Origin: an uncultured Alphaproteobacteria bacterium
GTDB taxonomy: Bacteria > Pseudomonadota > Alphaproteobacteria > SP197
NCBI GenBank assembly: GCA_958295695.1
Contig: OY282363.1
Coordinates: 1,738,225 to 1,802,224 of the forward strand
DNA: 64,000 nucleotides
Reading direction: 5' to 3'
Shown here piece by piece: positions 23,191-32,478 of the stretch (within the stretch, counting starts at the first letter, position 1; every line of letters begins with the position of its first letter). The position numbers were made by a program, and so were the translations under genes. The notes under the pieces were generated by a model. It had not been told where the DNA came from. It searched no databases and saw nothing but the letters and a program-made list of their open reading frames with translations.

Positions 23191-23988
23191 TCAGCCCAGC
23201 GCCTTGGCGACGGCGCGCTTGGCCATCACGGTGACGAGATGGGCGCGGTAGTCGGCGGCGGCGTGGATGTCGCTGTTGAGGCCGTCTTCGGGGATCGCGA
23301 TGCCGGCCACGGCGTCGGGGGAGAAGTCGCGCGTCAGGGCCTCTTCCATTTCGCGCACGCGGAACACGCAAGGGCCGGCGCCCGTGACCGCGACCCTCAT
23401 GCCCGCTCCGGTGTCGGCCACGAACACGCCGACGATCGCGTAACGCGAGGCCGGGTTCGGGAACTTCATGTAGGCGGCGCGGCGGGGCTTCGGGAAGGCC
23501 ACGGCCGTCACGAGCTCGCCCTCCTCCAGCGCGGTCTCGAAGAGATCGGGGAAGAAGCCGTCGGCCGGGACCGCGCGCCTGTCGGTGGTGACTGTGGCCC
23601 CGAGTCCGACCAGGGCGGCCGGATAGTCGGCCGCCGGATCGGCGTTCGCGATCGACCCGCCGATCGTTCCGCGGTTGCGCACCTGGAAATCGCCGATCAT
23701 GCCCGCGAGCTCGGCGAGCGCCGGGATGGCCGCCCCGCACCCGGGCGAGCGCGCGACATCGGCGTGACGCGCGCCGGCGCCGACGACGACCGCGCCGTCC
23801 TCCACACGGACGCCCTTCAGCGCCTCGATGTGGGCGATGTCGATGAGGTCGGTGGGCGCGGCGAGGCGCAGCTTCATCGTGGGCAGGAGCGTGTGGCCGC
23901 CCGAGAGGTAGCGCGGATCCTCGCACTCGCCGAACAGGCGGGCGGCGGCGTCGAGCGTGTCGGGACGGTGGTACCGGAACGCGTACAT
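23191..23988 (-). CDS. coxM: molybdenum hydroxylase (CO dehydrogenase/xanthine dehydrogenase family) FAD-binding medium subunit
   Basis: The 265-aa product carries [41 protein letters not shown] and a CoxM-type C-terminus ([12 protein letters not shown]). Confidence 0.85.
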
Positions 23989-23991
23989 CGT

Positions 23992-24471
23992 TCAGGCCCC
24001 GGCGCCGGCCATCTTGCCGGCCGCCGCGCGGATCGACTTGACGATGTTGTGGTAGCCCGTGCAGCGGCACAGGTTGCCTTCGAGGTGTTCGCGGATCTCG
24101 CGTTCGGTCGGGTCGGCGTTGTGCTTGAGCAGGTCGAGCGCGCTCATGATCATGCCCGGCGTGCAATAGCCGCACTGGAGGCCGTGGTTCTCGTGGAAGG
24201 CCTGCTGGATCGGGTGCAGTTCGTCGCCGTCGGCCACGCCCTCGATCGTCTGGATGTCGCGGCCATCGGCCTGGAGCGCCAGCACGGTGCAGGATTTGAC
24301 CGAATCGCCGTCGATGAGCACCACGCAGGCGCCGCACTGGCTGGTGTCGCAGCCGACATGGGTTCCGGTCAGGCGCAGGGTCTCGCGCAGGAAGGTCACG
24401 AGAAGCGTGCGTTCCTCGCAGACGCCGGACCGTTCTTCGCCGTTCACCGTCATGGTCGCGGTGATGGTCAT
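23992..24471 (-). CDS. coxS: molybdenum hydroxylase (2Fe-2S)-binding small subunit
   Basis: The 159-aa product carries [29 protein letters not shown] and [12 protein letters not shown]. Confidence 0.92.
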
Positions 24472-24540
24472 GGCAAGCTCCCCGATGGCCCCGAGGCCCG
24501 CAGTCTCGAAGCGCGCCGGCCCGCGGTCAAGCCCGCGCGG

Positions 24541-25155
24541 TCACTGCGCGACCGCGCCGGCGACCAGCAGGACGAGGAGCGCCAGGCCGATGAAGCCGAA
24601 CCACAGGTTCTCGAAACTGGCCTCGGCCGGCGCGCCGTAGACGGGCCGCGGAGGCGGACGCCCGTTCGCCGCCGGGGCCTCGGCCGTCGCGGCGGGCTCC
24701 TCCCCGGTCCGCGACGGTTGCGCCACCAGGTCGTCGAGGGCGCCGAAGAAGCGGTCCGCGATCTTGCGCGCGCTGCCTTCGACCAGACGGGCGCCGACCT
24801 GAGCCAGCTTGCCGCCGACCTGGCCTTCGGCTTCGTAGCGCAGGACGGTCGCCGCGCCGTCGGCCTCCAGCGTGACGCGCGCGCCGCCCTTGGCGAAACC
24901 CGCGACGCCGCCCTGGCCTTCGCCCGAGATGGTGTAGGCGTTGGGCGGATCGAGGTCCGACAGGGCGACCCGGCCCCTGAAGGTCGCCGAGACGGGACCG
25001 ATGCGCGCTGTCACCCTGGCGGCGAAGGCGGTGGCGGACTCCTTCTCGATCTCCCGGCAGCCGGGAATCGCCCGCTTGAGCACCTCGGGATCGTTGAGGG
25101 CGCGCCACACCGCCTCGCGAGGAGCCTCGATTCTGTGTTCGCCGGTCAGATTCAT
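24541..25155 (-). CDS. coxG: SRPBCC-fold CoxG-like protein with C-terminal membrane anchor
   Basis: An internal ATG at 25155 is preceded by GGGAGA. Pattern: [33 protein letters not shown]... [11 protein letters not shown]...[11 protein letters not shown]. The tail is hydrophobic ([18 protein letters not shown]). Confidence 0.8.
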
Positions 25156-25178
25156 CGGCGTCTCCCTGGGCGGACGGC

Positions 25179-30434: not shown

Positions 30435-30853
30435 CGCCGGCGGCGCTCGGCGAAGGTGTAGAAGACGGCGGTCAGCACCCCGGCGACCGTGACGCCGACG
30501 CCCAGTTCGATCAGGACGATGCCGACATGCTGGCCGTGCACGGGGTCGCGGCTGTCGAGCGCGCCGTAGTCGAGGAAGGCGCCGCCCAGGCCGAGCGCGA
30601 CGAACCCGACCGTCGCGTAGAGCGCGAGGCCCAGCGAGGCCATGGCGGTGACGGCCGCGAACGGCAGCGCCTGGATGGTGCGTCGGACTCCGAACACGAT
30701 GGCGTAGACGATGAAGCCGGTCGCGAAGATCACCCCCGCCTGGAAGCCGCCGCCCGGTCCGTAGTCGCCGTGCAACTGCACATAGAGGGCGAACAGAAGG
30801 ATGAAGGGCGCGAGCATCTTGACGACGACCCGGACGATGACGTTGTCGCTCAT
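30431..30853 (-). CDS. mrpB: Mrp/Mnh antiporter subunit B
   Basis: An internal ATG at 30853 gives a 140-aa product with LAPFILLFALYVQLHGDYGPGGGFQAGVI (MnhB domain). Confidence 0.8.
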   Translation of the reverse strand: MSDNVIVRVVVKMLAPFILLFALYVQLHGDYGPGGGFQAGVIFATGFIVYAIVFGVRRTIQALPFAAVTAMASLGLALYATVGFVALGLGGAFLDYGALDSRDPVHGQHVGIVLIELGVGVTVAGVLTAVFYTFAERRRR

Positions 30854-31395
30854 GGCTCGTCCCTCCGCCAGCGCCAGAGCAGCGCGATCACGCCGATGCC
30901 GGCGGTGAAGATCACGGTGACCTCGCCCAGCGTGTCGTAGCCGCGATAGCTCGCCAGCACGGCCGTCACGATGTTGGGGACGCCGGTGTCGCGCGGTCCC
31001 TCGGCGATGTAGCGGTCGGCGACGTGGTTGTGGATCGGCGCGGCCGCGTCGCCCAGCGCCGGCATGTCGAACGAGGCGTAGACCAGGGCCGCGCCGGCCG
31101 CGAAGGCGACCGCCAGGCCGAGGACGCGCCGCGCCGCGCGCCCGCCAGGCCGGGTCTCGCGCCGGGTCGTCAGGGAGAGGGCGGCCAGCATCAGCGTCAG
31201 CGTGATCCCGGCGCCGACCGCGGCCTCCGTGAAGGCCACGTCGACCGCGTCGAGCAGGGTGTAGACCGCGGCGAGCAGCAGGCTGTAGACGCCCGAGAGG
31301 ATCGCGATCGCCAGCAGATTGCGCATCCTCACCAGCGCGAGCGCCAGCGCGATCATCAACGCGATCAGAAGGACGATGTGAAGTCGTTCCATCAA
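30850..31395 (-). CDS. DUF4040 (MrpA C-terminal / MbhD-E-like) membrane protein
   Basis: The 181-aa product carries AVDVAFTEAAVGAGIT and NIVTAVLASYRGYDTLGEVTVIFTAGIGV. Confidence 0.75.
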   Translation of the reverse strand: MMERLHIVLLIALMIALALALVRMRNLLAIAILSGVYSLLLAAVYTLLDAVDVAFTEAAVGAGITLTLMLAALSLTTRRETRPGGRAARRVLGLAVAFAAGAALVYASFDMPALGDAAAPIHNHVADRYIAEGPRDTGVPNIVTAVLASYRGYDTLGEVTVIFTAGIGVIALLWRWRRDEP

Positions 31396-31736
31396 TCCGG
31401 CGCCTCGTCCCGCCCGTCGCCCGCCCGGTTGGCCGACGGGTCGTCGGGCGAAAGCCCGCCGAGAAGGGCCGAATGGGCGACCGCATGGCTGGCGGTCGGC
31501 GCCGTCAGCGCCAGGACGAGGCCGATGAGGACCAGCTTGACCGTCACGAGATCGAAACCGGTCTGAAGCGCCATGCCGAGCAGAAGAAGTCCGGCGCCTC
31601 CGGTGTCGACGACGCCGGCGGCATGGAGGCGCGTGAAGAAATCGGGCAGCCGGATGAGGCCGAGGGCGCCGATCGTCATCAGCAGGGCGCCGCCGACGAG
31701 CAGGACCCAGCTCGCGATATCCAGCGCGGCGCTCAC
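31392..31736 (-). CDS. mrpG: Mrp/Mnh antiporter subunit G
   Basis: The 114-aa product carries GALGLIRLPDFFTRLHAAGVVDTGG and TAPTASHAVAHSA. Confidence 0.85.
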   Translation of the reverse strand: MSAALDIASWVLLVGGALLMTIGALGLIRLPDFFTRLHAAGVVDTGGAGLLLLGMALQTGFDLVTVKLVLIGLVLALTAPTASHAVAHSALLGGLSPDDPSANRAGDGRDEAPD

Positions 31737-31996
31737 GGTTCCTCGCCCAGATGGCCGTGCCTGAAGAACCGGAGCGCGGCCAGCGTGCCGACGAAGTTCA
31801 GCAAGGCGTAGACCAGCGACAGATCGAGGAAGTCGGGGCGGTCCGTCAGGAATCCGCCGAGCGCGATGAGCAGCACCGTCATCGTGCCATGGACGTTGAC
31901 GGCGAGAATGCGGTCGTAAGGGGTGGGCCCGCGTACGGCCCGGACGAGGGTCGTGGCCATGGCGGCGACGACGAGCAGGGAGGCGACCGTGAACAC
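31733..31996 (-). CDS. mrpF: Mrp/Mnh antiporter subunit F
   Basis: A GTG start at 31996 gives an 87-aa product with RAVRGPTPYDRILAVNVHGT and LVYALLNFVGTLAALRF. Confidence 0.75.
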   Translation of the reverse strand: MFTVASLLVVAAMATTLVRAVRGPTPYDRILAVNVHGTMTVLLIALGGFLTDRPDFLDLSLVYALLNFVGTLAALRFFRHGHLGEEP

Positions 31997-32478
31997 TAGC
32001 GTCGCCCCTCCATGGCGCAGACCCGCCCGTTCATTTCGCCCTCCTTCAACTCTTCCAGCTCGCCGCGCGCCAGGGCGTGAACGTGGATCCTGCCCGGAAG
32101 CGCGGTGAGCGAGACGGTTCCGGGCGTTAGCGTGATGGAGTTGGCGAACGCCACGAGGCCCGCCGTCGTTTTCTGGTTCGCGTCGACCCAGCCCGCGGCC
32201 GGGTCGAGCGCGGCGACGGGCGAGAGGATCGCCCGGACGACCGCGAGGTTGGCGAGGGCGATCCGCCAGACGAGCCACGGAAGATAGGCCGGGAAGCGCC
32301 ACGCGAGCTGGATCGGGTGGCCCTCGCCGTCGATCGCGCCCATGCGGCGCGCGAGCGCCGCGACGAGGGCGGCGGACACGGCGCCGCATCCGAGGAGGAA
32401 CGGATCCCAATGCCCGGACAGCAGCAGCCACGCACCGAACAGGACGACGAACAGACTGAAGGTCCGTGCTGGCGGCAT
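31996..32478 (-). CDS. mrpE: Mrp/Mnh antiporter subunit E
   Basis: An internal ATG at 32478 gives a 160-aa product with FVVLFGAWLLLSG and FANSITLTPGTVSL (MnhE signature). Confidence 0.8.
   Translation of the reverse strand: MPPARTFSLFVVLFGAWLLLSGHWDPFLLGCGAVSAALVAALARRMGAIDGEGHPIQLAWRFPAYLPWLVWRIALANLAVVRAILSPVAALDPAAGWVDANQKTTAGLVAFANSITLTPGTVSLTALPGRIHVHALARGELEELKEGEMNGRVCAMEGRR

Follow-up and report, generated by a model that had tools for sequence, protein, structure and literature searches.

An Mrp-type antiporter operon adjoining a form II cox cluster that lacks coxL in an alphaproteobacterial genome

Mrp (Mnh/Pha/Sha) antiporters of the CPA3 family are encoded by clusters among which those with an irregular gene order form group 3 (Ito et al. 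2017, PMC5703873). Among CO dehydrogenase-like enzymes, the motif AYRGAGR in the catalytic subunit CoxL marks form II (PMC13240472), in the classification of King & Weber (2007) as cited there, and the substrate of the form II enzymes is still unresolved (PMC13240472). CoxG, a protein whose canonical architecture is an SRPBCC domain, a linker and a transmembrane helix, draws quinone out of the membrane and delivers it to the molybdenum CO dehydrogenase on its FAD side; other xanthine-oxidase-family enzymes are accompanied by CoxG as well (Kropp et al. 2025, PMC12202499). Here we analyzed a 64-kb stretch of DNA from an uncultured alphaproteobacterium (contig OY282363.1; hereafter the window, to which all coordinates refer unless another locus is named), in which a ten-gene mrp operon is followed head to tail by coxG, coxS and coxM, all of them on the minus strand between 23191 and 32478. 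We consider it likely that these are two independent, separately conserved units, an Mrp antiporter and a form II cox cluster without coxL, which build no joint machine, and their adjacency appears to be synteny inherited within one alphaproteobacterial group (Dongiaceae/Rhodospirillales-like). The main value of the analysis is thus corrective, in that two ordinary units, each conserved by itself, are found to abut. Three lesser results are real: a widespread Mrp type of ten genes, in which three antiporter-like subunits are joined by an 82-residue one that lacks annotation; a form II cox cluster that has lost its catalytic subunit at least two times while its iron-sulfur and FAD subunits are still selected, which suggests that they are shared with an unlinked molybdenum subunit; and YdbH-YnbE-YdbL lipid-transport genes conserved inside these cox clusters.

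The Mrp unit and its distribution

Gene identities were assigned with Pfam profiles, and the equivalog cut-offs of NCBIfam served as a second library. An earlier sequence-only reading of this DNA had described ten co-directional, mostly overlapping Mrp genes ending at 25179, and the Pfam identities agree with that description; neighbouring genes share 1, 4 or 8 nt at eight of the nine junctions, and mrpC and mrpD1 are separated by a 4-nt gap. The operon starts with mrpE (31996-32478, ATG at 32478; MNHE, E 9e-26), mrpF (31733-31996; MrpF_PhaF, E 2e-17) and mrpG (31392-31736; PhaG_MnhG_YufB, E 3e-23). The position of mrpF is also that of an 87-residue call on L001, a near-identical metagenome contig whose gene calls for mrpF, ynbE and ydbL were mapped onto the window. 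Next comes a gene for an MbhD/MbhE-like (DUF4040) protein (30850-31395; MbhD and MbhE), the equivalent of the C-terminal domain of MrpA, which scores 185 bits against NCBIfam NF009159 (cut-off 141) and aligns to residues ~600-780 of the NCBIfam MrpA models. It is followed by mrpB (30431-30853; MnhB, E 1e-27; NF009162 over its cut-off) and the NuoK-like mrpC (30069-30434; Oxidored_q2; NF005621 at 128.6 bits, cut-off 126). The rest of the operon consists of the antiporter-like genes mrpD1 (28589-30064; MrpD/NuoN/M-like; Proton_antipo_M, E 8e-62), mrpD2 (27114-28592; Proton_antipo_M and Proton_antipo_N, with a NuoL/MrpA-type N-terminus) and mrpD3 (25179-26876; Proton_antipo_M), the last Mrp gene, with the gene for the 82-residue protein (26869-27117) lying between the latter two. 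MrpD3, of 565 residues and with a C-terminal extension, reaches 670 bits against NF009310 (cut-off 564), and together with the B, C and DUF4040 proteins it passes the equivalog cut-offs for Na+/H+ antiporter subunits.

Like the known CPA3 antiporters, the window has a homologue of every Mrp subunit in one translationally coupled operon. All seven subunit functions (A-G) are encoded together, the N-terminal part of MrpA being represented by the Proton_antipo_N domain of D2 and its C-terminal part by the MbhD/MbhE-like protein, and both Pfam and NCBIfam find only Mrp-type families inside the ten-gene cluster. Unlike those antiporters, the window splits MrpA into these two proteins, adds the third antiporter-like subunit D3 and the 82-residue protein, and starts its gene order with E-F-G, the order of archaeal Mrp/Mbh modules; antiport activity is predicted all the same. 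Besides the closest solved relative of MrpD3, which is taken up below, solved structures related to the unit include the Mrp complexes 7qru, 6z16 and 7d3u and the Mbh complex 6cfw. By its gene content and order, the unit is a predicted stand-alone group 3 Mrp antiporter, that is, a CPA3 cation/proton antiporter of irregular order without a redox input module, which from its homology would export Na+ (or K+) at the expense of the proton-motive force.

The search for MrpD3 homologues was saturated (at least 8000 homologues), and a genome scan based on MrpD3 yielded 80 loci, which form our mrp sample. They span Alpha- and Gammaproteobacteria (the latter in Shewanella, Colwellia, Microbulbifer, Zhongshania and Glaciecola), Myxococcota, Gemmatimonadota, Nitrospirae, Desulfobacterota, Opitutales and others, and in 60 of the 80 all ten genes are found co-directional and in the same order. 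A homologue of the 82-residue protein (32-64% identity) lies directly upstream of D3 throughout the sample of 80, even in loci that do not extend over all ten genes, and wherever the locus also has D2 it sits between D2 and D3. The protein carries two hydrophobic segments and matched no family in the Pfam and NCBIfam scans; this Mrp type has in it a conserved subunit that lacks annotation.

For the surroundings of the unit, only loci with 3 kb or more downstream of MrpD3, 62 in all, were counted as informative. Cox genes lie near mrp in four of them, all alphaproteobacterial, and are missing from the other 58. When open reading frames (ORFs) within 4 kb on either side were clustered (62 downstream and 55 upstream flanks), no recurrent neighbour family was common to more than ten loci, and the largest family was a generic sensor kinase/response regulator.

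Two side observations concern the Mrp genes. A metagenome-assembled genome (MAG) of Deltaproteobacteria has, a few kb from its first Mrp cluster and on the other strand, a second Mrp-like one (L067, 10800-17736), whose order, E-B-F-G-MbhDE-C-D, differs from that of the first and recurs in L068. Upstream of mrpE in the window, on the plus strand, are genes for a DUF192 protein (32707-33231) and an NDUFS4-like protein of the complex I 18-kDa subunit family (33534-33830); both are conserved neighbours of mrp in alphaproteobacterial loci (L003, L006, L051, L082, L083 and L086).

The junction between the mrp and cox genes

Between the mrpD3 stop codon, which ends at 25179, and the coxG ATG at 25155 is a spacer of 23 nt (25156-25178, minus strand; gccgtccgcccagGGAGAcgccg), read directly from the DNA, with the ribosome-binding site GGGAGA inside it. 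No promoter- or terminator-like site was predicted here in a scan of positions 22800-33300 against the sigma-70 consensus, which is weak for an alphaproteobacterium of 70% GC. The spacer is too small to hold a terminator and none was predicted, which makes read-through from mrp into cox plausible; with 23 nt between the genes, transcription of cox from the mrp promoter is likely in this lineage. The sequence-only reading had placed coxG at this position behind its own ribosome-binding site, with coxS and coxM after it, exactly as we find them, and it had asked whether the junction is conserved in other genomes. Other strains share the adjacency, which is seen in about ten alphaproteobacterial genomes, with spacers of 23, 23, 19, 12 and 41 nt in several lineages. 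The genes stand in tandem in L072, L082, L084 and L003; in L072, mrpD3 is followed after 41 nt by coxG-coxS-coxL-coxM-coxD-coxE-xdhC-xdhC-mocA. (The L084 contig comes from a 2x-coverage assembly, and frameshifts in its mrp genes were given no interpretation.)

The same reading had gone further and suggested that Mrp and CoxG-CoxS-CoxM might form a functional unit of the Mbh, Mbs or complex I kind, in which a redox module of CoxS, CoxM and the membrane-anchored CoxG docks on Mrp to make a redox-driven ion pump. If true, such coupling would have given the Mrp/complex I family a new redox partner built from an electron-transfer module of the xanthine-oxidase family. The co-directional genes, the short spacer and the lack of a predicted terminator favor it, and so does an adjacency that recurs on separate branches of the MrpD3 tree. 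Among solved structures, MrpD3 is closest to an antiporter-like chain of 618 residues (6u8y_X), deposited as NADH dehydrogenase subunit M, in the redox-driven MBS complex of P. furiosus, which also fits; moreover, the window shares with Mbh, Mbs and complex I the order E-F-G-D/E-B-C-D and the MbhD/MbhE domains. Unlike these machines, however, it has no homologue of MbhM/NuoH, MbhJ/NuoB, MbhL/NuoD or MbhN/NuoI in or beside the cluster, the Pfam scan of cluster and flank genes having returned no NuoH/MbhM-, NuoB/MbhJ- or NuoD/MbhL-type coupling subunit, and the adjoining redox genes are of an unrelated kind, members of the soluble xanthine-oxidase family.

The distribution of the two gene sets also speaks against a joint machine. 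Mrp occurs without cox in 58 of the 62 informative loci, and in the cox-side sample, five loci picked by way of CoxL homologues (L087, L088, L089, L090 and L091), only one has mrp nearby and four do not. The full cox unit of Pelagibius (L087), Limibacillus (L091) and a Dongiaceae MAG (L090) has no mrp within 10 kb, and Aquibaculum (L089), with coxG-S-L-M, lacks mrp as well as ydbH. In the remaining locus, from a member of Rhodospirillaceae (L088), mrp is 4.4 kb off, with TRAP transporter genes on the opposite strand in between. Even where both sets are neighbours, their orientation and spacing vary: they are 3.3 kb apart in L007 and divergently transcribed in L083 and L051, in which the block of mrp genes between DUF192 and cox has the opposite orientation to that in the window. 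Relatives keep the order NDUFS4-DUF192-[mrp in either orientation]-cox, and a simple inversion of the mrp block would produce these variants. Finally, the close relatives L086 and L085 keep an intact mrp operon after losing cox, the cox cluster originally had coxL (see below), so that the set of CoxS, CoxM and CoxG is a deletion product and not a native architecture built to dock on Mrp, and CoxG already has a different demonstrated role as a quinone shuttle. With the units mostly apart, their arrangement variable and the coupling subunits missing, the proposed functional unit does not hold up, and we regard a docked, redox-driven Mrp as very improbable. We see hardly more reason to believe in a later recruitment, by which the L-less CoxS-M-G set, transcribed with mrp, would have become a flavin/iron-sulfur/quinone module coupled physically or energetically to Mrp.

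A looser relation can also be considered, in which one promoter would co-express both units for the sake of membrane energetics, for example in energy-limited or saline/alkaline growth, and no complex is formed. Such an arrangement could account for the short spacers kept in several lineages and for an adjacency that persists down to ~55% MrpD3 identity. A shared transcript is ruled out, however, where the units are divergent (L083 and L051) or have opposite-strand genes between them (L088), and in most genomes they lie apart, so that we give this explanation little weight beside that of two independent units brought together in one lineage.

The cox cluster and the loss of coxL

The three cox genes next to mrp are coxG (24541-25155; COXG, E 6e-37), coxS (23992-24471; Fer2_2 and Fer2), whose product holds two [2Fe-2S] clusters, and coxM (23191-23988; FAD_binding_5 and CO_deh_flav_C), encoding the FAD subunit. 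CoxG matches the solved CoxG 8uds_D and has the layout of an SRPBCC domain, a linker and a C-terminal transmembrane helix, the hydrophobic C-terminus being kept in relatives; the closest solved relatives of CoxM are the CO dehydrogenase flavoproteins 1ffv_C and 1n5w_C. The accessory genes, likewise on the minus strand, are coxD (16696-17616; AAA_5), coxE (15494-16699; VWA_CoxE), an xdhC that is split into an N-terminal (15183-15512; XdhC_CoxI) and a C-terminal gene (14503-15168; XdhC_C), and a MoCF_biosynth/MocA fusion (12887-14506; NTP_transf_3 and MoCF_biosynth). Between the end of coxM and the start of coxD are 5.6 kb, of which 1.7 kb is a strain-specific insertion element. The catalytic subunit is absent from the whole 64-kb window: tblastn with two form II CoxL proteins of relatives gave a best E of 0.3, and the long ORFs all encode something else, namely an ADP-forming acyl-CoA synthetase-like protein, YdbH, polyphosphate kinase and the MocA fusion. 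The sequence-only reading had noted the missing large subunit as an oddity in itself and had located coxD, coxE, two xdhC genes and the mocA fusion 5.6 kb downstream, beyond ydbH; the oddity is real, and the accessory genes, identified with Pfam and placed by tblastn, are there.

In architecture, CoxS, CoxM and CoxG are like those of form II CO dehydrogenase-like clusters, as is the set of coxD, coxE, xdhC and mocA, and the gene order is that of the Pelagibius, Limibacillus and Dongiaceae relatives, in which twelve genes form the unit coxG-S-L-M-ydbH-ynbE-ydbL-coxD-E-xdhC-xdhC-mocA. The window is this ancestral unit minus coxL. Its coxS stop is followed after 3 nt by the coxM start, at the point where relatives have coxL; CoxL is found between coxS and coxM in L072, L007, L083 and L087-L091, with the motif AYRGAGR or ASRGAGR. 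The coxS/coxM deletion junction is homologous in the window, in L084 (MrpD3 85% identical) and in L082 (78%), and L003 (75%) has the same junction with an additional 33-nt GC-rich repetitive insert (CCGGGCGGGGCCGGGCGGGGGCCGGGCGGG, at 12717-12773 of that locus). L051 has a different junction, of 18 nt, and the other members of its clade keep coxL; its own loss was independent. The absence of coxL is a derived, precise deletion at the level of lineages that arose at least twice from an ancestral form II cluster of the xanthine-oxidase family. That the L-less S and M genes are a distinct old paralog family was also considered and rejected, because the Cox trees agree with that of MrpD3, L-less loci are nested among those with coxL, and the junctions are homologous. 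Our literature search for coxS/coxM lacking coxL found nothing.

Do the remaining subunits still function? Among pairs of L-less genomes, the ratio of nonsynonymous to synonymous substitution rates (dN/dS) was 0.18-0.37 for coxS and 0.25-0.45 for coxM, as compared with 0.21-0.50 for the mrp genes of the same pairs; these values were calculated by the Nei-Gojobori method at a GC content of ~0.9 in third codon positions, where absolute values are unreliable, and only the comparison of cox with mrp within the same pairs is used. In the L-less clade, CoxS keeps 75 of the 77 columns that are invariant in L-linked homologues, including all eight cysteines of the iron-sulfur clusters, and CoxM keeps 97 of 104. 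Both genes remain under purifying selection, with their cofactor motifs kept. Retained selection combined with some change of constraint, as indicated by the divergence of CoxS described below, is most simply accounted for by service to a different, unlinked molybdenum subunit, and CoxS and CoxM probably serve such a subunit encoded elsewhere in the genome. The genes of CoxS (iron-sulfur), CoxM (FAD) and CoxG (a membrane-tethered quinone shuttle) are thus still functional, and their products most likely represent the electron-transfer and quinone-reducing half of the enzyme, and its molybdenum half would be supplied from another place in the genome. Whether the three make up a shared, free-standing electron-transfer/quinone-shuttle cassette for molybdenum cofactor-bearing subunits encoded elsewhere is, in our judgment, evenly balanced.

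Several observations weigh against two independent units of which the cox half is still functional. In a neighbor-joining tree of MrpD3, which covers one protein, is distance-based without support values and was used only on this point, the cox-adjacent loci are not monophyletic, and L088 pairs a close CoxL (78% identical to that of L083) with a distant MrpD3 (45%). The non-monophyly and this mismatch make repeated juxtaposition of the two units possible, and such repetition would point to a link in function or regulation. Where the spacer is 12-41 nt (L086, L082, L084 and L072), cox expression probably depends on mrp transcription. L-less CoxS has diverged faster, with 68-72% identity to five outgroup clusters as compared with 80% for that of the L-bearing L083. 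Among the best 120 matches to the L083 CoxL in a collection of 5.8 billion proteins, no CoxL of an L-less genome reached 73% identity or more, although an ortholog could lie at ~70-75%. Sister lineages, moreover, show further decay of the cox cluster. L082 has nothing related to cox beyond coxM, whose start codon is CTG instead of ATG, L003 lacks coxD and coxE, and L085 has lost cox altogether. In L086, only residues 1-62 of CoxG are still represented, in a 65-residue ORF 12 nt past mrpD3 (11711-11908 of that locus) with unrelated genes behind it, a visible remnant of the lost cluster.

This series of decay in L082, L003, L086 and L085, the faster divergence of CoxS and the lack of a close CoxL ortholog among those matches could mean that coxG-S-M and coxD/E/xdhC/mocA are non-functional leftovers of a cluster that has been eroding since the loss of coxL. 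Yet the cox genes of the window are all intact ORFs, their coxS and coxM dN/dS equals that of mrp across lineages that diverged after the deletion, and nearly all invariant residues are kept together with every iron-sulfur cysteine. The deletion is in register with both neighbours intact, and the independent loss in L051 also left coxS and coxM intact. We therefore find it unlikely that the genes are mere leftovers, and continue to prefer a cox unit that stays under selection beside, and separately from, the Mrp antiporter.

Two observations on regulatory elements were made along the way. In L088 a gene for a GAF-HWE histidine kinase (8167-9345 of that locus) lies between coxG and coxS, and at the same place in L051 (2100-3473) are two ORFs that, read by eye, look like a pair of extracytoplasmic function sigma factor and anti-sigma factor. 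In the window, the 104-nt gap between coxM and ydbH contains TTGACG and TAGAAT separated by 20 nt (23093-23124, minus strand), which is promoter-like with a long spacer, and on which the scan made no call.

The ydbH genes and the insertion element

Unlike the form II clusters described so far, the window and its relatives have three further genes between coxM and coxD, and no report of such an arrangement was found; no paper on both YdbH and CO dehydrogenase came up in a full-text search. In the window these are ydbH (19943-23086; YdbH-like, E 5e-57), ynbE (17987-18190; Lipoprotein_19) and ydbL (17650-18000; DUF1318), all on the minus strand, the latter two identified on the L001 calls and placed by tblastn. 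They correspond to genes of an AsmA-like intermembrane phospholipid transport system embedded in a form II cox cluster. With the window, at least six genomes have ydbH between coxM and coxD, the others being L084, L087, L088, L090 and L091. An insertion of the ydbH cluster in this genome was considered and rejected, because the placement is the same in Pelagibius, Limibacillus, the Dongiaceae MAG and L088; common to these relatives, the ydbH cluster is therefore part of the ancestral cox unit. The association of ydbH with cox may be more persistent than that of mrp. The embedding is intriguing given that CoxG itself extracts lipid/quinone.

An insertion-sequence-like element of 1,701 bp (18230-19930, within 18222-19938) separates ydbH from ynbE. 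It is absent from the near-identical L001, and its local GC content is 0.62 as compared with 0.70 for the window. The element is flanked by an 8-bp target duplication (AACGCGAT) and bounded by terminal inverted repeats of ~23 nt (GGAATTTCCTAGTTTAGGGTCTT). On the opposite strand it has an ORF of 238 residues with a signal-peptide-like start and no family match, and its other ORFs encode an IS1595-type zinc ribbon followed by a frame-shifted continuation with a P63C domain.

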